Source: Candidatus Omnitrophota bacterium (lineage in GTDB: Bacteria > Omnitrophota > Gorgyraeia > Gygaellales > Profunditerraquicolaceae). Taken from it: DNA of 64,000 nucleotides. The notes beneath the pieces were generated by a model. That model was given only the letters and a program-made list of their open reading frames with translations, was not told where the DNA came from and did not search any database. The stretch is taken from NCBI GenBank assembly GCA_028712375.1, contig JAQTQG010000005.1, positions 7,393 to 71,392 on the forward strand, in the 5' to 3' direction. Shown here piece by piece: positions 1,839-13,732 of the stretch. Every line of letters begins with the position of its first letter. The first letter of the stretch is position 1. The translations under genes were made by a program, and so were the position numbers.

Positions 1839-3938
1839 ATGGGATTTGATTTGTTGTTATTGGCGCCGGTAGGTTCAATTTTAGCTTTAGGTTTTGCATT
1901 TTATCTGGCTTTGAGTGTTTTGAGGATGGATGAGGGTACGGATAAGATGAAAGAGATTGCCAGCGCTGTGCGCATAGGCGCCCAGGCTTATTTAAAAAGG
2001 CAGTATCTGGGTGTTTCTATGTTTTTTGTGGTGGTATTTTTTATTCTTCTGGCGATGGCTTTGAAGAATTATCTGGTAATATTTGTGCCGTTTGCTTTTT
2101 TAAGCGGCGGTATCTTTTCCGGGTTATCCGGTTTTATCGGTATGACCATTGCTACACAAGCTTCTAATCGTACTGCGCAAGCCGCATCCAAGAGTTTAAA
2201 TTCGGGATTGCGGGCGGCTTTTTCCAGCGGCGCGGTAATGGGCCTTACGGTTGTAGGGTTAGGTTTATTAGATTTGAGTATTTGGTATTATTTCCTGGAT
2301 TGGTATTATTCCTGCCATCCGATCCCGTTAGGCACAGACAAAATCGCGGCAATTACTTCTACTATGCTTTGTTTCGGTATGGGTGCCAGCTCAATGGCGC
2401 TTTTTGCCAGGGTAGGCGGAGGCATCTTTACTAAAGCTGCAGATGTCGGCGCAGACTTAGTAGGTAAAGTAGAAGCAGGCATTCCGGAAGATGATGCGCG
2501 TAACCCGGCAGTTATCGCGGATAATGTCGGTGATAATGTCGGTGATGTCGCCGGTATGGGTGCCGATCTTTACGAATCTTATGTTGGTTCAATTGTGGCT
2601 ACTTCGGCTTTAGGTGTGGCTGCCGGTTTAGGGATTGCCGGAGTTACCGTTCCGATGGTTATGGCGGCAGTAGGCGTAGTTGCTTCTATTATTGGTACTT
2701 TCTTTGTAAAAAGCGGTGAGCAAGCAAGCCAAAAAGTATTGCTGGCAGCTTTGAGAAAAGGAGTGTTTACTAGTTCTTTATTAGTGGCGGTAATTTCCTA
2801 TTTTCTTATCAGGCATACTCTGGGAGTTGAAAATCTTGGTGTTTATTGGTCGGTGTTGGCGGGTTTAGTCGCGGGGGTGTTAATTGGTTTAGTTACTGAA
2901 TATTATACTTCCAGCGGTTTTAAGCCTACCCGTACAATTGCCGAAGCTTCTTTGACCGGGCCGGCCACTGTGATTATCGGCGGCATTGCGGTGGGGATGA
3001 TGTCTACCGCCATTCCGGTGATTATTGTGTGCGTGGCTATTTTAGCAAGTTTTTATTTGTCCGGTGGCGCGGCAAATTTTAATTCCGGGCTTTATGGAAT
3101 TGCAATTTCCGCGGTTGGCATGCTTTCTACCTTAGGCATCACTTTGGCAACCGATGCTTATGGCCCGGTAGCGGATAATGCCGGCGGTAACGCTGAGATG
3201 TCCAAATTACCTCCTGAAGTAAGGAAGCGTACTGATGCTTTGGATTCTTTAGGAAATACAACCGCGGCAACCGGTAAAGGGTTTGCGATTGGTTCAGCCG
3301 CTTTAACGGCGCTAGCCTTGATTGCGGCGTATAAAGACCAGGTTATGCTCTTCGGGAAAGACATAAATGCTAATATGATGAATCCAACAGTATTAGTGGG
3401 TTTGTTTTTAGGCGGGATGATGCCATTTTTATTTTGCTCTATGACGATGCGCGCGGTAGGAAGAGCTGCCGGTAAAATTGTAGTAGAAGTGCGCAGGCAG
3501 TTTAAGGAAATTGTTGGTATTATGGAAGGCAAGGCTAAGCCTGATTATGCGCGTTGTGTGACTATTGCTACTGCCGCTGCGCAGAAAGAAATGATTGCGC
3601 CTTCCCTTTTAGCGATTACTGCTCCTATAGCAGTGGGTTTATTAATCGGGATTGATGCGGTTGCCGGGTTATTGGTGGGCGCAACGGTAACCGGTTTTGT
3701 TTTAGCGGTAATGATGGCTAACTCCGGTGGTGCCTGGGATAACGCTAAAAAATATGTCGAAGAAGGTAACCATGGCGGTAAAGGGTCAGCCGCGCATAAG
3801 GCTACAGTAGTTGGCGATACAGTTGGCGATCCGTTTAAGGATACTTCCGGGCCCAGTTTAAACATATTAATTAAGCTGATGTCTATGGTTTCGATTGTTT
3901 TTGCTTCATTTATTATTAAAAATACATTGCTTAAGTAA
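1839..3938 (+). CDS. hppA: membrane-bound proton/sodium-translocating pyrophosphatase
   Basis: 699 aa polytopic; [19 protein letters not shown] and [21 protein letters not shown] signature motifs of V-type H+-PPases. Confidence 0.9.
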
Positions 3939-3956
3939 TTAAAGTTACTCAATAAA

Positions 3957-4009
3957 GGGGATCGTTTCTATTTTGCTTTAAAAAAATAGAAACGGTCCCC
4001 TTATTTTTT
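3957..4009 (+). terminator. rho-independent terminator after hppA
   Basis: 18-bp stem GGGGATCGTTTCTATTTT / AAAATAGAAACGGTCCCC with one mismatch, followed by TTATTTTTT. Confidence 0.65.
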
Positions 4010-4089
4010 CTCCTGTAAAATAGGAAAATGCCTTTTTCTTTCGACAATTTTCTGTTTATTTCCCCCTTTTTAGTATTATAATATAAATA

Positions 4090-4689
4090 ATGAATGATTT
4101 GGAGCTTCTCCAAAGCTGCCTAAAGGGCCAGAAACAGGCTTGGGCTGAATTCCTCTTGCGTTATTCCCGCCTAATCTATAATTATATTCACAGTGTTTTA
4201 TCGATTAAGGGGCGCGCTGCTTCTGCGGAGCAGGTTGATGATATCTTTCAGGAAATATTCCACTCTTTAATTAAAGATAATTGTAAAAAACTAGCTTCTT
4301 ACCGTGGCAAAAACGGCTGTTCTTTGGCCAGTTGGCTAAGGCAGGTGACTATTAATTTTACGATTGACTATTTACGTAAACTTAAGCCAATCTCATCTAT
4401 TGATGTTCAGGATGAGGATGGATTTAGCCTGAGCGATTCATTGGCGGATCTTTCTCCTGGAGCGGTTGAATTTTTAAATGACCAGGACAAGCGTAAAACT
4501 TTAACTGAATGTATCGGATTGCTGGAATCAGAAGAACAGTATTTTCTGGAATTGTTATTAAATCAAGGGCTAACCTTAGATGAGATTAAGGATTCTTTTA
4601 AGATTAACCGGGGAGCGGTAGATATGCGTAAAAGCCGGATCTTAGAAAAGCTGCAGGATTGTTTTAAGAAAAAAGGATTTTTAGGTTAG
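4090..4689 (+). CDS. ECF-type RNA polymerase sigma factor (sigma-70 family, regions 2 and 4 only)
   Basis: 199 aa; region-2-like block DDIFQEIFHSLIK...SWLRQVTINFTIDYLRK and C-terminal HTH LTLDEIKDSFKINRGAVDMRKSRILEKL. Confidence 0.75.
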   Translation: MNDLELLQSCLKGQKQAWAEFLLRYSRLIYNYIHSVLSIKGRAASAEQVDDIFQEIFHSLIKDNCKKLASYRGKNGCSLASWLRQVTINFTIDYLRKLKPISSIDVQDEDGFSLSDSLADLSPGAVEFLNDQDKRKTLTECIGLLESEEQYFLELLLNQGLTLDEIKDSFKINRGAVDMRKSRILEKLQDCFKKKGFLG

Positions 4690-4729
4690 ATTTATCTTAT
4701 TTAGGCGTCTATTAAGGTGTGGGGGAGAA

Positions 4730-5434
4730 ATGAATAATTATTTTGAACGGATAGTGAAAGTTGTCTATCGGGAATGGAAAACTGCTAACCGGGTTATCGA
4801 AAAAGATCATCCGGACGCAGAGCTTCTGGCTTGTTTTCTGGAAGGCAATTTACCTGCGCAAGAAAAAGAAATAATCCAGAAACATATTGTTCGGTGCGGT
4901 CTATGTTCCGAATATTTAAGTGCTCAGCTTAGAATACAGCCGCATTTGAGTTTAGATGTTCCTGACCCGTTGCTGGAGAAGGTTGGAAAACTAGTCAAAG
5001 CTGCCGGCCGGGAAAACCTGTTAGAAGTATTTCTTCAGCTTAGAGACAAGGCTTTAGGGATTATCCAGACTTCCGGAGATGTCCTTTTCGGGCAGGAATT
5101 AATCCCTGCTTCGTTGTTACGTAGCAGAAAAATTAATGAATTCAAGGAAGAGGTAAGTATTTTAAAAGACCTGCAGCGGATTAGAGTGATGATTAAAGTC
5201 CAGAGTAAGTCTGCTCAAAGTTTTAATTTAATAATTGCGGTTAAAGATAAACAGGGGCGGGTATTGAATAAAGAATTACGGGTTACTTTACTTAAGGAGG
5301 GCGTAGAGTTGGAATCTTATGTTATGGATTCTGAAAGCAGCTCTTTTGAAAATATTCCCCCCGGTGATTATCAGCTGGAGATTAGCCGTAAAGGAGAGAA
5401 TGAGGCAGTGATTGATTTAAGGGTCAAGGCTTAA
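4730..5434 (+). CDS. putative soluble zinc-finger (ZAS-like) anti-sigma factor
   Basis: Lies 40 nt downstream of the ECF sigma gene; HIVRCGLC = H-x3-C-x2-C anti-sigma zinc-finger motif; no hydrophobic TM segment; good SD GGGGGAG. Confidence 0.5.
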   Translation: MNNYFERIVKVVYREWKTANRVIEKDHPDAELLACFLEGNLPAQEKEIIQKHIVRCGLCSEYLSAQLRIQPHLSLDVPDPLLEKVGKLVKAAGRENLLEVFLQLRDKALGIIQTSGDVLFGQELIPASLLRSRKINEFKEEVSILKDLQRIRVMIKVQSKSAQSFNLIIAVKDKQGRVLNKELRVTLLKEGVELESYVMDSESSSFENIPPGDYQLEISRKGENEAVIDLRVKA

Positions 5435-5437
5435 TTT

Positions 5438-7633
5438 ATGTTATCCGGGAAAATATTGATTTTAGAAGTTTTTAGGCAGGAGAATTCTCTTAGAATAGGT
5501 TTATTTGATCAGGGCCAAGCTACCCCCACCTTGCGGCATTATCGCCAAGTGGGGGTTTCTTTTTCAGAGCTAAAACATCTCAGTCTAGAGATGATTGAGG
5601 TGCTTAACCGCAAGGCCGTTGATAAGGCAAGCCGGCTTGAACAGCTGAAGGATTTGGAGAAAATCGGCCGCCTGTTTTGGGATCATCTGCTTAGCCGCTC
5701 AATTAAAGAAAGGTTGAAAAACAGCCAGCATGCGTCTCTGGTGCTTTCTTTAGATGAGGAGTTAATCTATATCCCCTGGGAATTAATTTTTGATGGAACT
5801 GATTTTCTTTGCCTGAAATTCAGCTTAGGCAGATTGGTGCGTAGCAAAGGGGATGGCACTAGCTTGCAATACCGCGAGCTGTCTGACAGCTTAAGAATGC
5901 TGGTTTTAGCCGATCCGAACGCAGATTTGAATTCCGCTTATGCGGAAGGATTAAATATTAAGAATCAATTTAACCACAAAACTAAAAAAGTCCGCCTGGA
6001 TTTTAAATCCCGGAATATCAATAAACATTATGTGAAAAAGAATATTTGTGATTATGATATCGTGCATTTTGCCGGGCATTGCGAATTCGATAAGTCAGAG
6101 ACTAAGGGCAGCGGCTGGGTTTTAAGCGATGGCGTCTTTAGTGTAGATGATATTCTTAAAATGGGGCAAAGCTGCAGTTTGCCAGCCATGGTATTCTCTA
6201 ATGCCTGCCATTCGGCAGAGGTTAACCCCGCCTTAATTGATACGGAATATCAGCTTGCGAATTATAGCATGGCGAGTGCTTTTTTGTTTTCCGGAGTCCG
6301 GCATTATATTGGTTCAATCCGTAAAATTGAGGATGGAGCTAGTTTGGTGTTTGCGCGGGAATTTTATGCCAAGCTTATTTCGGGAGTAAGCGTAGGGGAA
6401 TCCTTGCGGTCAGCTAAATTAAAGTTGGTTAAGGATTATGGGCTGGCTAGTTTGCATTGGGTAAATTACCTGCTTTATGGCGATCCGGGCTTTATTTTTT
6501 TTAAAATTCCCAAACACCGGGAGTTCAGGCCAAAGCCACTTATGTTTTCTAGAAAAATTCTGGTTAAAACCGGGCTGGCCGTTATATTAGTTGGTTTATG
6601 TATTTTTCTGGGTTTTTGGCTGCCCAAAGCGAATCCCACAAAGTTATATTTATATCTTAACGCTGTTTCAGAGTTCCGTAAGGGGAATAATCAGGAAGTA
6701 ATCGTCTTGGGCCAGAAGGTTATGAATAAAGACCAGGATTTTCTGGCAGTTTACCCGCTGCTTGCCGGAGCCTACCAGCGCTTAGGGGATAAAAATAAGG
6801 CGCTTAAGTACTATTCTGAATATATGTTGAGTAGCGAAAAATTAAATGACCTGGGGCATCTGGGGCTTGCCTATATAAAACTTGGATGGTCTTACCAGGC
6901 GGATGGGCAATATGAAAAAGCCAAAGAGTTATATGAAAAAGCAATAAATTTAAGCCGGCAAACAAAGAATAAGCTGAATGAAGCGTTAGCCTTAAGAAAA
7001 CTGGCAGTCTGGCATATTGATAAAGGAAATTATGATCAAGCACTGGATTTATTAACTAAAAGTGCGGCTATTAATTTAGAATATCCAGGAAAATTCGATA
7101 ATATAAAAAACCTGGCTTGTGATTATTTTGATATCGGGTTGGTTTTTACGAATAAAAATGATTATGCGGCGGCTAAAGATTTTTATGGCAAAAGCCAAAA
7201 AATATTCCAGAAGTTAAAATTATATAATGAATTAAGCGATTGCTATTACAATTTAGGGGAAATTTACTTTTTTGAAAAACAATACTTAAAGGCATTAGAT
7301 TATTACTATAAAGGATTAAGGTTGGATCAAAAACATGATAATAAAGTAAATTTAGCTTGTGGCTATAATATGATCGGAGAGCTTTACTTGGAGATGGATA
7401 ATTTAGATAAGGCGGAAGGATATTTTAAGCAGTCCATAGCATTATCTGAGAAAATCAACAGCCGGATGGACTTGGCTTGCGCGAATCACAATCTGGGCTT
7501 GTTGTATAAAAAGAGCCGCAGGAAGAATTTGGCCCGCGATCATCTGCGCCGGGCGCAAGAAATATACAGCTTAGTGGATCAAGAAGAGTATCAGCAGATC
7601 CGCAAAGAAATATCAGAGCTGGATTCCCTTTAA
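5438..7633 (+). CDS. CHAT-domain (caspase-like peptidase) protein with one transmembrane helix and a C-terminal TPR repeat array
   Basis: The N-terminal ~350 aa carry DIVHFAGHCEF (His) and MVFSNACHSAE (Cys) dyad motifs; TM helix ILVKTGLAVILVGLCIFLGFWL lies after a basic stretch; six or more TPR-like repeats follow (LGDKNKALKYY, YEKAKELYEKAI, YDQALDLL, AKDFYGKSQKIF, YLKALDYYYKGL, LDKAEGYFKQSI); 3-nt gap from the anti-sigma gene. Confidence 0.6.
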   Translation: MLSGKILILEVFRQENSLRIGLFDQGQATPTLRHYRQVGVSFSELKHLSLEMIEVLNRKAVDKASRLEQLKDLEKIGRLFWDHLLSRSIKERLKNSQHASLVLSLDEELIYIPWELIFDGTDFLCLKFSLGRLVRSKGDGTSLQYRELSDSLRMLVLADPNADLNSAYAEGLNIKNQFNHKTKKVRLDFKSRNINKHYVKKNICDYDIVHFAGHCEFDKSETKGSGWVLSDGVFSVDDILKMGQSCSLPAMVFSNACHSAEVNPALIDTEYQLANYSMASAFLFSGVRHYIGSIRKIEDGASLVFAREFYAKLISGVSVGESLRSAKLKLVKDYGLASLHWVNYLLYGDPGFIFFKIPKHREFRPKPLMFSRKILVKTGLAVILVGLCIFLGFWLPKANPTKLYLYLNAVSEFRKGNNQEVIVLGQKVMNKDQDFLAVYPLLAGAYQRLGDKNKALKYYSEYMLSSEKLNDLGHLGLAYIKLGWSYQADGQYEKAKELYEKAINLSRQTKNKLNEALALRKLAVWHIDKGNYDQALDLLTKSAAINLEYPGKFDNIKNLACDYFDIGLVFTNKNDYAAAKDFYGKSQKIFQKLKLYNELSDCYYNLGEIYFFEKQYLKALDYYYKGLRLDQKHDNKVNLACGYNMIGELYLEMDNLDKAEGYFKQSIALSEKINSRMDLACANHNLGLLYKKSRRKNLARDHLRRAQEIYSLVDQEEYQQIRKEISELDSL

Positions 7634-7650: not shown

Positions 7651-7678
7651 TTGACAGTTATTTAATTTAGGTTATACT
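7651..7678 (+). promoter_or_regulatory. sigma70-like promoter TTGACA-16-TATACT for the rrf2/sulfur amino-acid operon
   Basis: TTGACA 7651-7656, 16-nt spacer, TATACT 7673-7678. Confidence 0.5.
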
Positions 7679-7702: not shown

Positions 7703-7737
7703 GGTAAAGCTTGATAACTGACAGGCAGGGAGAACAG

Positions 7738-8178
7738 ATGAAAATTACATACAAAGGTGATTACGCTTTAAAGGCGCTTTTGGATTTAGCGCTGCATTAT
7801 GAAAAGGGATTGTCTACGATTAATGATGTGGCTAAACATATTGATGCCCCGGTAAAATTTTTAGAGCAGGTGCTTTTAGATTTAAAAAAAGGCGGGTTTG
7901 TGGAGAGTAAGCGCGGTAACGTTGGCGGGTATCAACTGGCTAAGGATCCTGCGGATATTACTTTAGGGCAGGTGATCCGTTATATTGACGGGCCGATTGA
8001 ACCGATTGGCTGCGTGGAAAAAGGGTATTCTAATTGTGTTGATTTACGCAAGTGTGTATTTAAAGGGATTTGGCAAAGAGTAGGGCAAGCGACTTCAGAA
8101 ATTATCGACAATATAAATTTTGCAGATTTGGCGGTTCAGATTAATCGTAAACAGGATACATTCGCTTATACAATTTAA
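7738..8178 (+). CDS. Rrf2 family transcriptional regulator (CymR/IscR-like)
   Basis: MKITYKGDYALKALLDLALH N-terminus is typical of the Rrf2 wHTH family; three Cys near the C-terminus (CVEKGYSNCVDLRKC); start moved to ATG 7738 with SD AGGGAG. Confidence 0.75.
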   Translation: MKITYKGDYALKALLDLALHYEKGLSTINDVAKHIDAPVKFLEQVLLDLKKGGFVESKRGNVGGYQLAKDPADITLGQVIRYIDGPIEPIGCVEKGYSNCVDLRKCVFKGIWQRVGQATSEIIDNINFADLAVQINRKQDTFAYTI

Positions 8179-8200
8179 TAATTACGAAAGGGGTAAATAA

Positions 8201-9496
<1,296 letters not shown>

Positions 9497-9507
9497 AGGA
9501 GAATAAT

Positions 9508-10443
9508 ATGGCTGAAATATTTTCTGATATTACTAAGACCGTAGGCAATACTCCTTTAGTAAAGCTAAATCGGATTGCTGAAGGGCTGCCAGCTACAGTC
9601 CTGGTAAAAATAGAATCATTTAACCCTCTTTCCAGTGTTAAAGACCGCATCGGTGTAGCCATGATCGAAGACGCGGAAAAAAGAGGGGTACTTAAAAAAA
9701 AATCCACAATTGTTGAGCCGACCAGCGGTAATACCGGCGTAGCTTTGGCTTTTGTGGCGGCAGCCAAGGGTTATAAGTTGATCCTGACTATGCCGGATAC
9801 GATGAGCGTAGAAAGAAGGCAGCTTTTAGCGATTTTCGGGGCGCAATTGGTATTAACTCCCGGTGCCGAAGGAATGAAAGGCGCAGTTAAAAAAGCAGAG
9901 GAGTTAGCGCAAGAAATTCCGGATGCGGTTATTTTACAACAGTTTAATAATCCGGCTAATCCTGAAATTCACCGTAAAACTACGGCCGAAGAAATTTGGA
10001 ACGATACTGATGGAAAGATTGATATTTTGGTATCCGGGGTTGGTACGGGCGGTACAATTACCGGAATTGCCGAAGTAATTAAAAAAAGAAAACCATCTTT
10101 TAAAGCGATTGCCGTTGAGCCGGATGCTTCTCCCGTTTTATCCGGAGGGGCACCTGGGCCACATAAAATTCAAGGTATTGGAGCAGGTTTTATCCCCCAG
10201 GTTCTTAATAAAGAGATAATTGATGAAGTTATCCGGGTGACTAATGATGATGCCGGCTCTACTACCCGGGCGCTGGCTAAATCCGAAGGGGTTTTAGCGG
10301 GTATCTCAAGCGGGGCAGCTTTGTGGGCAGCTTTAGAAGTAGCCAAACGTAAAGAAAATAGAGGGAAAGTTATCGTAGTTATCCTTCCGGACACCGGTGA
10401 GAGGTATTTGACTACTTGGCTTTTTCAAGAGGTAAAAGGATGA
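9508..10443 (+). CDS. cysK: cysteine synthase (O-acetylserine sulfhydrylase)
   Basis: [14 protein letters not shown]-lysine motif, TSGNTG and [10 protein letters not shown] loops. Confidence 0.85.
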
Positions 10444-11600
10444 TTAAAGAAAAAAAGATAATTCAGAATGGACATCTTGGCATCGTGCAGGAGCAGGCGT
10501 TTACTTTTGATGCGCTTAAGCTGGAAAGCGGGGAGAAATTCGGCCCGGTTACTTTGGCTTATGAAACTTATGGTGTTTTGAATAAGGAGCGTTCTAACGC
10601 CATTTTAATTACCCATGCTCTTTCAGGAGATGCGCATGCTGCCGGAGTGCATGCAGGCCAGGATAATCCGGGTTGGTGGGATGAATTTATCGGCCCAGGC
10701 AAAGCATTTGACACGGACAGGTATTTTATTATTTGTTCTAATGTCCTGGGCGGGTGTAAAGGTTCAACCGGGCCATCGAGTATTAATCCCAAGACAGGCA
10801 AGCCTTATGCTTTGGATTTTCCTCTGATTACGATTAATGATATAGTAAATGCCCAGAAAAATTTAATTGACCATTTAGGGATAGAAAAACTTCTTTCTGT
10901 AGTGGGCGGCTCAATGGGCGGGCAGCAGGTTTTATCCTGGCTAGTTAATTATCCGGGCAGCTTACGCAGCGCTGTGCCGATTGCCACCACCATCAAACAC
11001 TCTCCGCAACAGATTGCTTTTAACGAAGTGGGCAGGCAGTCGATTATGGCCGATAGCCATTGGAAATCCGGCAATTATTATGATGGGGCAGCTCCGACTA
11101 AAGGATTGGCAGTGGCCAGGATGATTGGGCATATTACTTACATGAGTGATAAATCCATGGCGGAGAAGTTTGGCCGGGCCAAGAAAGATGCCGGAGAACC
11201 GTTTAAATTTACCGCGGATTTCGAGGTTGAGGGGTATTTGCGTTACCGCGGGGATAATTTTGTGAAACGCTTTGATGCCAATTCCTATCTTTATATAACC
11301 AAAGCCATGGATAATTTTGATGCTACGGCCAAGCGGCCTTTACAGGAAATTTTACAAGGCTCTTCAGTTAAGGTTTTAGTTATTTCTTTTAAGTCGGATT
11401 GGCTCTATCCGGCATATCAATCCAAAGAAATTGTGAAAGCCTGTAAACTGGCGGAAGTGGAGACTACTTATTGCGAAATCGACTCTACTTATGGCCACGA
11501 TGCTTTTTTGCTTGAGGTGCAGGAGGAATCGCATTTAATTAAGCACTTTCTTAAAAAAGTATTTTATGCTTATGAGGTGACTGGTGAATATGGCGCGTAA
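10440..11600 (+). CDS. metX: homoserine O-acetyltransferase
   Basis: ATGA overlap with cysK; alpha/beta-hydrolase nucleophile elbow GGSMGG and [13 protein letters not shown] typical of MetX. Confidence 0.85.
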
Positions 11601-12183
11601 AAATATCCAGCTGGATCACGCGGTAATTCTAGATTTGGTTAACCCTCAATCTACGGTGTTAGACTTAGGTTGCGGTAATGGGGATCTTTTGTACCTTTTG
11701 ATTAAAGAAAAAAAAGCCCGCGGCCAGGGAATTGAAATTGATGACCAGGCGATTTATAAGTGCGTAGCTAAAGGTTTGAATGTTTTTCATGGCGATGTGG
11801 ACAGCGGTTTAGCCGAATTTAATGACAAATCTTTTGATTACGTTATACTTAATCAAAGCATGCAGCAAATCTTGCATGTGGATAAGGTTTTATCCGATGC
11901 TCTTCGTGTGGGCAAAAAAGTGATCGTCGGTTTTCCGAACTTTGCGTATTATAAATCAAGGCTGCAGATATTTTTCCGGGGTAAATCCCCGGTTACTGAA
12001 TCTTTGCCGTATCAGTGGTATGAGACGCCGAACCTGCATTTTTTAAGTATTCTTGATTTTAAAAAATACTGCCGCACGAAGAATATCACTATCGAACGCC
12101 AGGTTTGTATCGGAGAAAAACACCAGATACCTTTTCTGCGCAATTTATTCGCGCAAGTCGGCATCTTTTTAATATCAAAATAA
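11584..12183 (+). CDS. metW: methionine biosynthesis protein MetW (methyltransferase-like)
   Basis: [15 protein letters not shown]-fold motif; position directly after metX is the canonical metXW arrangement. Confidence 0.75.
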
Positions 12184-12194
12184 GGGAGGCGGGT

Positions 12195-12374
12195 ATGCCA
12201 TATATCAATCTTAAATTAGTAGGCAAGCTTAATAAGGAACAGAAAGAAAAAATCGCTAAAGAATTTTCCGATACGTTGTTAAAGGTAGCCGGAAAACCCA
12301 AAGACAGCCTTTATTTGGTTATTGATGAAGTGGCGGGTGAAAATTGGGCTAAAGGTGATAAATTTTTTGGCTAA
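12195..12374 (+). CDS. tautomerase family protein (4-oxalocrotonate tautomerase-like, Pro1)
   Basis: 59 aa starting MPYINLKLVGKLNKEQKEKI; Pro after the initiator Met and the beta-alpha-beta length match 4-OT; strong SD GGGAGG; the ORF-track upstream extension overlaps metW and is unlikely. Confidence 0.5.
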   Translation: MPYINLKLVGKLNKEQKEKIAKEFSDTLLKVAGKPKDSLYLVIDEVAGENWAKGDKFFG

Positions 12375-12463
12375 GTTTAAAATATCCGGATAATGATGAG
12401 GACGGCAAAATTATATATATTGTAACTGATTTATTTGCTTGTCTATGGTAGGATAAGTTCGAT

Positions 12464-13732
12464 ATGAAATTTAAAAAACTATTTTTTAGTGTTTTTATCC
12501 TGTTGGTGATATTAATTAATTTTGAGCATGCGCATTCTTCCGAATCCCTGTTATTAAATTCTCTTGTTGACGAAGCCCTAAAGAATAACCCGCAAATTCA
12601 AGCTGCTAAATACCGTTATGAAGCTGCTAAGGCTAGGGTGAAGTTGCTTCGTACTCTTAGTGATCCAAAGTTCGAATATGAGTATGATAAAATAACTGCG
12701 GGCATGGATAATCTGATGAATAATAATACAAAACCCATGCGTACCTTTGCTATTTCGCAGGAGTTCCCCTTTCCCTCTAAACTTTTTTTACGTAAGCAAG
12801 CCGCACAGAAAGAAGCTAATGCTTATGAGCAGGAGTATAAGGAAACCGAGCGCAAGGTTATAAAAGACGTAAAGGATGCTTATTTTCAATTATTCCTAAA
12901 TGATAATAAAATTAGGCTCACGCAAGAGAATCTAAATTTACTTTTGCAATTTATCGAGATTACGAATAAAAAATATTCGGTAAATAAAGCCAGCCAGCAG
13001 GATTCTTTAAAAGCGCAGGTAGAGCATTCAAAATTATCCAACCAACTCGTATTGTTAGAACAGGAAAAGAAGATTGCCCGGAGTATGTTGAATTCCCTTC
13101 TTAATCGTTCGCAGGAGGAAGATATCGGTAACATAGAAGAGGCGAGTAATAAGGTTTTAGAGTTAGACGAGCAAGTAATACTTAAGTCAGCGAAAGAGAG
13201 CCGTCCGGAGTTAAAGTCGTTTCAGGAGATGGTCAGGAAATCTGAGATAGATTACTCGTTGAGTAAGCAGGAATATTTGCCCGATTTTATGATTAAATAT
13301 AAAAGAGAGAGTAATAGCAATCCTGGTTCTTGGGCGGCGATGTTGGGGGTTACTGTTCCGTTATGGTTTTGGGAAAAACAAGATTCTTTTGTTAAAGAAG
13401 CTCAGGCTAATGTCGGGGTAGTAAAGGCAGAGTATCAAGCTCAGGAGAATATGGTTTTATTTGAAGTCCGCAGCTCCTACGCCAGGTTTGATGCTGCTAA
13501 AAAATTAGTCAAAATTTATGAAACTGGTGTTTTACCTCAAGCGCAGGCTGCGCTAGATACTGCGCGGCGCGGCTATGAAACAGATCTTTTGAGTTTTCTT
13601 GACTTGTTGGATTCTGTGCGCACTTTACGGGAATTCCAGATGGAGTATTTTGAGTCGTTGGCCAATTTAGAGATTGCTTTAGCGGATTTAGAGCGGTCTG
13701 TTGGTATTGGCTTAAGTGAGGTGAAAAAATGA
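12464..13732 (+). CDS. outer membrane efflux protein (TolC/CzcC family) of a heavy-metal RND system
   Basis: Signal peptide, 422 aa, coiled-coil/beta-barrel OEP organisation, immediately followed by the MFP and RND genes. Confidence 0.7.
   Translation: MKFKKLFFSVFILLVILINFEHAHSSESLLLNSLVDEALKNNPQIQAAKYRYEAAKARVKLLRTLSDPKFEYEYDKITAGMDNLMNNNTKPMRTFAISQEFPFPSKLFLRKQAAQKEANAYEQEYKETERKVIKDVKDAYFQLFLNDNKIRLTQENLNLLLQFIEITNKKYSVNKASQQDSLKAQVEHSKLSNQLVLLEQEKKIARSMLNSLLNRSQEEDIGNIEEASNKVLELDEQVILKSAKESRPELKSFQEMVRKSEIDYSLSKQEYLPDFMIKYKRESNSNPGSWAAMLGVTVPLWFWEKQDSFVKEAQANVGVVKAEYQAQENMVLFEVRSSYARFDAAKKLVKIYETGVLPQAQAALDTARRGYETDLLSFLDLLDSVRTLREFQMEYFESLANLEIALADLERSVGIGLSEVKK

Follow-up and report, generated by a model that had tools for sequence, protein, structure and literature searches.

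Extracytoplasmic function (ECF) sigma factors form the third major pillar of bacterial signal transduction, and they are known to be activated through regulated intramembrane proteolysis, by switches of a conformational or redox kind, by partner switching or phosphorylation, and through C-terminal extensions. In canonical regulated intramembrane proteolysis (RseA/DegS/RseP, RsiW) membrane-spanning anti-sigma factors are cut by separate site-1 and site-2 proteases, and soluble zinc-finger anti-sigma (ZAS) proteins such as RsrA release their sigma factor upon zinc-thiolate oxidation; in the BlaR1/MecR1-BlaI/MecI systems an outside sensor is joined to a cytoplasmic zinc metalloprotease which inactivates a soluble DNA-binding repressor. 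Within a 64,000-nucleotide stretch of contig JAQTQG010000005.1 from a Candidatus Omnitrophota bacterium (assembly GCA_028712375.1; the whole stretch is referred to below as the window), three adjacent genes were identified which are predicted to encode an ECF sigma factor (gene 1), a soluble ZAS-type anti-sigma-like protein (gene 2) and a single-pass membrane protein with a caspase-fold CHAT domain inside the cell and a TPR domain outside it (gene 3). This trio probably turns genes on by cutting a soluble inhibitor.

The closest published precedent is DdvA, a fused ZAS-transmembrane-periplasmic TPR-CHAT anti-sigma factor (PMC11506125) which, with the ECF sigma factor DdvS, makes up the DdvS/DdvA system of Myxococcus xanthus (PMC11506125, PMC6061681). 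In both cases an ECF sigma factor is placed, here by prediction, under a ZAS domain which is linked with one membrane helix, a TPR region and a CHAT domain, and the N-terminal domain of DdvA was the top PDB sequence match of gene 2, at a sub-threshold score. The arrangement of the parts is different: DdvA is a single polypeptide with the ZAS domain inside the cell, then the helix, then the TPR and CHAT domains in the periplasm, whereas here the ZAS protein is separate and soluble and the membrane protein has the order CHAT-helix-TPR, which would put the protease in the cytoplasm, in the same compartment as the anti-sigma factor. The DdvA active site lacks three helices, and the mechanism proposed for it is self-cleavage as the site-1 step followed by RseP (PMC11506125). 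The CHAT domain of gene 3 is closer to Csx29 and separase (E 1e-13) than to DdvA (E 4e-6), and DdvA regulates a CBASS/CRISPR island, whereas the module described here lies among housekeeping genes. ZAS and CHAT domains were never seen fused, either in 150 gene 2 representatives (all ≤246 aa) or in the gene 3 homologues.

Compared with regulated intramembrane proteolysis, the proposed course of events is alike, in that an anti-sigma factor would be removed by proteolysis in response to an extracytoplasmic signal, setting an ECF sigma factor free, but gene 2 has no membrane segment and the sensor carries its own cytoplasmic protease. BlaR1/MecR1 would work in a similar way, but have no caspase fold, do not target an anti-sigma factor and show no homology to the proteins described here. 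In Craspase (Cas7-11/Csx29/Csx30/CASP-sigma RpoE; PMC10028731) a CHAT protease disables the soluble protein that inhibits an ECF-type sigma factor, as is proposed here, and a resemblance to this logic suggested in an initial annotation of the locus was borne out by Csx29 being the best structural neighbour of the cytoplasmic domain of gene 3. The present system differs from Craspase in that there is no Cas7-11, crRNA or CRISPR array in the 64-kb window, that gene 2 has no detectable similarity to Csx30 (NCBIfam), that the trigger would be an extracytoplasmic signal relayed across the membrane helix and not RNA binding, and that the TPR region, N-terminal and cytoplasmic in Csx29, is C-terminal and predicted to lie outside the cell in gene 3. 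CalpL-CalpT-CalpS (bioRxiv 10.1101/2024.05.08.593097) likewise combines a protease, a soluble anti-sigma factor and a sigma factor that is ECF-like, with the signal-activated cleavage of the anti-sigma factor that is proposed here, but CalpL is a cytosolic SAVED-Lon serine protease which is activated by cyclic oligoadenylate, has no membrane sensor and is associated with type III CRISPR. The initial annotation had suggested that the trio would be a route to ECF activation outside regulated intramembrane proteolysis; this is reasonable, but the logic is not new, as Csx30 and CalpT are already protease-gated. Protease gating of a soluble anti-sigma factor is known from Craspase-Csx30-CASP-sigma and CalpL-CalpT-CalpS, and it is the split architecture that is the new part.

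Caspase homologues beside sigma factor genes have been noted earlier in the context of ECF54 (PMC8999054), in metacaspase-sigma operons (PMC3501461) and in EACC2-caspase systems with an ECF sigma factor (PMC8195603). In these reports, as here, a caspase-fold protease adjoins a gene of the ECF or sigma-70 family and proteolytic control was suggested, but none of them contains the pair of a cytoplasmic CHAT-helix-sensor protein and a soluble ZAS/beta-sandwich protein. ECF54 was considered as a home for the module and rejected, being reported as actinobacterial and without an anti-sigma factor, and the other reports concern Peptidase_C14 metacaspases or EACC2 architectures. CHAT is unmentioned in the main text of the ECF reclassification paper, and no description of a split module with the protease inside the cell was found in the full-text literature searched.

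The three genes are co-directional, with spacers of 40 nt (gene 1/gene 2) and 3 nt (gene 2/gene 3), and the coordinates of the open reading frames (ORFs) matched those of the initial annotation exactly (Table 1). The same gene order on the same strand was observed at 79/79 related loci (loci from species-representative genomes with at least 1.4 kb upstream of a gene 3 homologue), homologues of genes 1 and 2 lying directly upstream of the gene 3 homologue each time, which is far beyond chance. An H+-pyrophosphatase gene lies upstream in 45 of the related loci and an Rrf2 gene downstream in 30, and these shared flanks speak for a core region of the chromosome that is inherited vertically, rather than a mobile island. 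The trio was also found at distant loci with unrelated flanks and varied sensor domains (L001, L083-L087 and the P0067 contig), including a Deltaproteobacteria metagenome-assembled genome (MAG) in which three genes are inserted between the sigma and anti-sigma genes (L083), a Nitrospirota MAG (L086) and a locus with one inserted gene (L087); at a further locus, L088, the upstream gene encodes 388 aa whose sole match is to sigma-4. Reverse look-ups starting from distant gene 2 relatives led again to an adjoining CHAT gene, and a gene 3 relative was encoded in 477/492 pattern-matched stretches of the species-representative genome collection. The distance between gene 2 and gene 3 was ≤14 nt in 55/57 loci (mode 4 nt), while that between gene 1 and gene 2 was mostly 27-50 nt across the loci compared. 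Because synteny is kept across distant lineages with different flanks, the three genes appear to be functionally linked, and it is very likely that their products form one functional sigma-control module, as the initial annotation had supposed in treating them as a unit.

Gene 1 had been read as an ECF sigma factor, and profile searches place it in the ECF (group 4) branch of the sigma-70 family, with 72 bits against TIGR02937 (sigma70-ECF, cut-off 42.9) and scores at or above threshold for Pfam Sigma70_r2 (28.7 bits, cut-off 24) and Sigma70_r4 (24.1 bits, cut-off 24.1). Against the CAS_III-E_sigma model NF041236 it scored 32.4 bits (cut-off 100), which puts it outside the type III-E CASP-sigma family. 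In 62/74 loci a TATAAT sequence stops 6-9 nt short of the sigma start codon (≤15 nt in 63/74), mostly in the extended -10 form TGnTATAAT with a T-run ahead of it and without a Shine-Dalgarno sequence, and this fixed position implies that the sigma mRNA would be leaderless and transcribed from a housekeeping-sigma promoter. No conserved ECF-type autoregulatory promoter was found upstream of gene 1 among the 74 related loci compared. A promoter of the housekeeping type fits constitutive production of the three proteins with control exerted at the protein level.

Gene 3 matched Pfam CHAT (PF12770) with 101.6 bits (cut-off 24) over residues 75-349, covering model positions 2-289 of 289, and TPR_12 with 110.6 bits in 4 stretches after the helix; where the initial annotation had counted at least six TPR repeats, approximately 8 were found. 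The His/Cys dyad that it had recognised in the motifs DIVHFAGHCEF and MVFSNACHSAE corresponds to H214 and C257, both of which are invariant, together with G213, in 72 gene 3 homologues of 31-54% identity. An AlphaFold model of residues 1-400 had a predicted local distance difference test (pLDDT) score of 91.8 and a predicted template modelling score (pTM) of 0.86, and the best Foldseek match of the modelled CHAT region was Csx29 of Craspase (E 1.8e-13, template modelling score 0.59), with further matches to separases (E ~1e-12 to 1e-9), SAVED-CHAT (1e-8), gingipain R and DdvA (4e-6). In the PDB, the sequence profile of gene 3 picked up SAVED-CHAT (residues 286-323) and DdvA (residues 273-338) alone, and no separase. 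From profile and model together, the CHAT region is assigned to the caspase-hemoglobinase fold (clan CD) of the separase/Csx29 type, and endopeptidase activity is predicted.

The single transmembrane helix of gene 3 (residues ~372-398) has a Kyte-Doolittle value of 2.44 and is preceded by 7 Lys/Arg in 20 residues, compared with 3 after it. A helix follows the CHAT domain in 63/70 family members, exactly one in 60 of those 63, and 15 residues contain a mean of 4.4 Lys plus Arg on the N-side of the helix against 2.0 on its C-side (Wilcoxon p = 7e-10), the N-side being the richer in 51 members and the poorer in 7. No N-terminal signal-like or anchor segment was detected among the 70 members. While CHAT, helix and the anti-sigma partner are constant, the C-terminal domain in other subfamilies is DUF4384, CsgG/LpoB-like or F5/8 discoidin instead of TPR, all typical envelope or extracellular types, and an outer-membrane efflux protein encoded in the window is consistent with a diderm envelope. 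The positive-inside bias, the lack of an N-terminal signal, the envelope-type alternative domains and the diderm envelope together place the CHAT domain in the cytoplasm and the TPR domain outside it, a predicted topology which is that of the initial annotation (one helix after a basic stretch, CHAT inside, TPR outside) and which now holds family-wide. The juxtamembrane linker varies in length (18-68 residues) and in sequence, and so gives no sign of a conserved self-cleavage site in gene 3.

A hypothetical protein identical to gene 2 is recorded for a Candidatus Omnitrophica MAG. The motif HIVRCGLC, singled out in the initial annotation, consists of H52, C56 and C59, each of which is present in 119/121 gene 2 sequences; with position 27 (His in 74, Cys in 45) these residues fit the ZAS motif [H/C]-x23-26-H-x3-C-x2-C (H27, H52, C56, C59). 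The absence of a hydrophobic helix was likewise upheld, the highest 19-residue Kyte-Doolittle mean being 0.92, and a weak hydrophobic stretch at most (mean >1.6) was seen in 3/120 family representatives. An exhaustive profile search gave 739 family representatives at 50% clustering, and the full-length ones are nearly all 213-246 aa and matched end to end, so that the family appears uniform (~234 aa, predicted soluble); a profile search of a word-indexed database returned the same close homologues only. When the profile was compared with the PDB, the N-terminal domain of DdvA, RslA and ChrR ranked first for residues 25-83, and NCBIfam gave only faint matches to RsrA (E 0.055) and FlgD. Taken together, the ligand set and these rankings suggest that gene 2 is a ZAS-type anti-sigma factor which would bind the sigma factor through its N-terminal part. 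In one gene 2 counterpart of the discoidin subfamily (L085:5279-6001) both zinc cysteines are lost (HMLARDEEESL) and the invariant Arg and the beta-sandwich are kept, which indicates that zinc binding is dispensable in at least one branch.

The AlphaFold model of gene 2 (mean pLDDT 65.7) contains helices at residues 4-19, 30-37, 43-55 and 57-66, two more within residues 79-110, a segment of pLDDT <50 at residues 107-134 and a confident eight-strand beta-sandwich at residues 141-232 (pLDDT 80-87). Fold searches with the model returned just generic Ig/FN3/prealbumin-like beta-sandwich matches, all with E >1e-3, and among 70 gene 2 members the beta-sandwich matched CarboxypepD_reg in 15, the EMC7 beta-sandwich in 12 and SpaA in 12. 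The best-conserved part of the protein is the low-confidence segment between the two halves, TxGDVLxGQELxPAxxLRSR. Arg131 in this segment is the sole residue invariant across the gene 2 alignment (121/121), and one of three invariant columns in 70 diverse members whose identity falls to 15%. As the sole absolutely invariant residue, within a conserved segment that is predicted to be unstructured, Arg131 marks a candidate cleavage or docking site.

From the domain identities, the topology and the intact dyad, together with the three-gene linkage, the swappable sensor and the invariance of the linker Arg, we infer sigma binding by gene 2, its cleavage by gene 3, the position of the cut and the mode of activation, as follows. 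Gene 2, as a soluble zinc-finger anti-sigma factor, would keep the ECF sigma factor inactive, while gene 3 would act as a single-pass membrane 'receptor protease' whose outside domain (TPR in this case) senses an envelope or extracellular cue. The cue would activate the cytoplasmic CHAT domain, most plausibly via induced proximity or dimerisation, and the active protease would cut gene 2 at or beside Arg131, within the conserved linker that is predicted to be unstructured, parting the sigma-binding N-terminal portion from the C-terminal beta-sandwich. The N-terminal fragment would then be degraded or dissociate, leaving the sigma factor free. This is in essence the scheme of the initial annotation, which is plausible and in part supported. 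The case for cleavage gains from Arg131, an invariant residue of a conserved and by prediction unstructured segment, and we put the probability of the full sequence, from sensor to CHAT cleavage of gene 2 to sigma release, at about 0.5.

The active site of gene 3 was considered in the light of what is known of clan CD, where helix alpha-1/L1, L4 and L5 determine P1 specificity and where Arg-specific members carry acidic residues at these places (MALT1 D365 and E500; RgpB D163) (PMC4357240). In the gene 3 model, E170 is located on the helix after strand 1 and D299 just after strand 5, which by secondary-structure position are two of the three clan CD P1-specificity regions, and the placing of these residues is compatible with a basic P1 residue. 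The layout proposed here is that of a characterised system, Craspase, in which the N-terminal part of Csx30 binds CASP-sigma and Csx29 cuts downstream of it; the cut lifts the inhibition and yields fragments that seem to be unstable (PMC10028731).

A number of observations weigh against cleavage of gene 2 by gene 3, or against the assignments on which it is built. The 79-locus synteny largely reflects shared ancestry within one Omnitrophota clade, and independent support comes from approximately ten distant loci. The zf-HC2 profile (PF13490), named as a check in the initial annotation, gave 15.2 bits for the window protein, below its gathering score of 22.2, although 55/70 diverse members of the family matched it individually (E ≤0.1; best E 1e-6). 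The PDB anti-sigma matches of gene 2 are each sub-threshold (E 0.15-2.6), the model of its N-terminal helices is of moderate confidence (pLDDT 56-75), and Foldseek searches with this model, in which those helices are weakly modelled, recovered no anti-sigma domain. The S1-pocket argument for gene 3 is one of secondary-structure position and not of coordinates, and it is Met or Leu, not Arg, after which the CHAT proteases known so far (Craspases) cut (PMC11506125). A cut at Arg131 would spare the sigma-binding part, so that a further degradation step must be assumed, and an invariant Arg in a conserved loop suits a pseudosubstrate or docking role equally well.

The main alternative takes up this last point, namely that the Arg131 loop has a securin-like or prodomain-like role as a pseudosubstrate or tether. 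Gene 2 would then dock its Arg131 loop and/or its beta-sandwich on the CHAT domain uncut, gene 3 would make up the membrane-bound half of an anti-sigma factor split in two, and signalling would proceed through release or a conformational change, or else the target of CHAT would be a different one (CHAT itself, the sigma factor or another protein). The linkage evidence applies to it in the same way, the tight spacing of gene 2 and gene 3 suggests a stoichiometric complex, and an invariant Arg in a conserved loop resembles the pseudosubstrate inhibitors of Arg-specific clan CD proteases, such as the gingipain RgpB prodomain, whose inhibitory loop bears Arg126 (PMC4357240); securin is present in separase structures among the fold matches of gene 3, and the CHAT substrate proposed for DdvA is DdvA itself (PMC11506125). 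The His-Cys dyad is strictly invariant over the 72 divergent homologues, however, which argues that catalysis matters, the module encodes no other conserved candidate substrate, and the variability of the gene 3 juxtamembrane linker speaks against the self-cleavage variant. Docking without cleavage is therefore regarded as unlikely, though it is the strongest of the competing accounts.

It is more improbable still that gene 2 is an independent redox switch of the RsrA kind, in which oxidation of the zinc-thiolate frees the sigma factor and the CHAT-helix-TPR protein is tied to it by nothing more than co-expression, being an output or effector rather than an input. The conserved ZAS ligand set and the faint RsrA match would agree with this, but the L085 partner lacks both cysteines while Arg131 and the trio are kept, and Arg131 is more conserved than the zinc ligands. 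Furthermore, gene 2 always carries the extra linker and beta-sandwich, both of which RsrA-type proteins lack, and a variable extracytoplasmic domain on a constant protein is the hallmark of an input module.

An anti-phage or abortive-infection module akin to Craspase or DdvA, with CHAT as the defence effector and the sigma factor turning on defence genes, was judged very improbable. The closest characterised relatives (Csx29, SAVED-CHAT and DdvA) are all defence-linked (PMC11506125; PMC10028731), and extra TPR-CHAT and PIN genes lie near the trio at L083. Nevertheless, PADLOC gave no cas match on the three proteins and no defence-protein match beyond generic TPR, no CRISPR or tandem array was found within the 64-kb window, in line with the initial annotation, which had seen no CRISPR or cas genes nearby, and the locus lies between housekeeping genes and is inherited vertically across the clade, outside variable islands; a defence-island reading was rejected on the PADLOC, CRISPR and flank evidence. 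An inverted topology, with CHAT periplasmic like the TPR-CHAT region of DdvA (PMC11506125) and TPR cytoplasmic, so that gene 2 and the protease would never meet, is barely credible given 0/70 members with an N-terminal signal or anchor, the strong family-wide positive-inside bias and alternative C-terminal domains (CsgG/LpoB-like, discoidin, DUF4384) typical of envelope and extracellular proteins.

Cleavage of gene 2 by a membrane-anchored CHAT protease may also be put in broader terms. On this somewhat more tentative extension, the gene 3 proteins would be a widespread bacterial family of single-pass 'receptor caspases', each with a swappable extracytoplasmic sensor, one helix and a cytoplasmic separase/Craspase-type CHAT domain, which are activated by ligand-induced proximity (compare eukaryotic death-receptor/caspase signalling) and cut a dedicated soluble zinc-finger anti-sigma factor after an invariant Arg, turning the ECF regulon on.

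The neighbourhood of some distant loci was also recorded. At L083 a separate gene (3503-5233) repeats the sensor domain type of the trio in a DUF4384 protein of 576 aa, and directly downstream of the trio (8472-13595) are two more large TPR-CHAT proteins (835 and 859 aa), which show TPR before CHAT as in Csx29 and DdvA, together with genes for PIN domains. A neighbouring gene likewise repeats the sensor domain type at L084 (7971-11314), where a Toluene_X outer-membrane channel comes after a Glucodextran_B/CsgG-like protein of 684 aa, and at L088 (6938-10278), where a similar Glucodextran_B-TPR protein of 653 aa is again followed by Toluene_X. There are hints here that the sensor domain may monitor co-encoded envelope assembly via like-with-like interaction.

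In the window, the terminator-like hairpin upstream and the Rrf2 promoter downstream (Table 1) delimit the trio as a predicted discrete transcription unit. The flanks are housekeeping genes, with the H+-pyrophosphatase upstream and Rrf2 (125 bits) and Cys/Met biosynthesis downstream; no match to Rfam was obtained. Downstream (7711-12183), the Rrf2-family regulator gene is followed by genes for a Cys/Met pyridoxal-phosphate enzyme, a PALP enzyme, a MetX-type alpha/beta hydrolase and MetW, a sulfur amino-acid block in which gene ends overlap and which is kept downstream of the trio in approximately 20-30 close relatives. Gene 2 and gene 3 share a reading frame across their junction (TAA TTT ATG, 5432-5440), so that stop-codon read-through would fuse both; this in-frame spacing is probably not conserved, other loci having mostly 4 nt. 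Over the whole window (1-64000) the + strand carries 48/48 ORFs of ≥180 aa, each 2-kb window shows a positive GC skew and cumulative skew climbs monotonically across the 64 kb, an unusually complete strand bias which presumably represents co-orientation with replication on one replichore.

Table 1. Positions of the three genes, their domains and the bordering signals in the window
Feature	Position	Strand	Basis or remark
Intrinsic terminator-like hairpin, 20 bp stem and T-run	3955..4002	+	Closes upstream H+-pyrophosphatase gene; upstream module boundary
TATAAT -10 box, housekeeping-type	4077..4082	+	Ends 7 nt before gene 1 ATG (4090)
Gene 1, ECF (group 4) sigma factor, 199 aa	4090..4689	+	TIGR02937, Sigma70_r2, Sigma70_r4
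Gene 2, soluble ZAS-type anti-sigma-like protein, 234 aa	4730..5434	+	N-terminal helices, conserved linker, C-terminal beta-sandwich
Gene 2 zinc-ligand set, H27 ... H52-x3-C56-x2-C59	4808..4906	+	Alignment of 121 sequences
Gene 2 conserved linker motif, T114-x-GDVL-x-GQEL-x-PA-xx-L-R131-S-R	5069..5128	+	Arg131 codon 5120-5122; predicted unstructured; candidate CHAT cleavage/docking site
Gene 2 C-terminal beta-sandwich, CarboxypepD_reg/prealbumin-like	5150..5425	+	Eight strands, pLDDT ~80-87
Gene 3, CHAT - transmembrane helix - TPR protein, 731 aa	5438..7633	+	Pfam, model, fold search
Gene 3 predicted cytoplasmic CHAT region, separase/Csx29 type (Pfam CHAT residues 75-349)	5438..6484	+	101.6 bits; His214 6077-6079, Cys257 6206-6208
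Gene 3 acidic residues, invariant E170 and near-invariant D299	5945-5947 (E170); 6332-6334 (D299)	+	Homologue alignment
Gene 3 single transmembrane helix, residues ~372-398, N-terminus inside (predicted)	6551..6631	+	Hydropathy, model, family topology statistics
Gene 3 predicted extracytoplasmic TPR domain, ~8 repeats; interchangeable sensor position of family	6650..7597	+	TPR_12
TTGACA-16-TATACT promoter of downstream Rrf2 regulator gene	7651..7678	+	11/12 matches; downstream module boundary

With 739 gene 2 representatives and a gene 3 relative in nearly all of the pattern-matched stretches, the module is not a one-genome curiosity, and the swapping of sensors between lineages is how successful signalling chassis evolve. 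It offers a simple, CRISPR-free setting in which to study the switching and substrate choice of CHAT proteases, for which Arg131 provides a concrete and testable cleavage-site prediction, and it ties what is known of Craspase and DdvA to everyday envelope signalling in the Omnitrophota, an uncultured phylum that has been little studied. If the proposed mechanism is true, the routes of ECF activation would gain a membrane-spanning sensor with its own cytoplasmic caspase-fold protease acting on a soluble anti-sigma factor. If the proteins are indeed receptor caspases, this would be a one-step form of transmembrane proteolytic signalling that differs from regulated intramembrane proteolysis, and it may be the free-standing system from which the Craspase-Csx30-sigma circuit descends.

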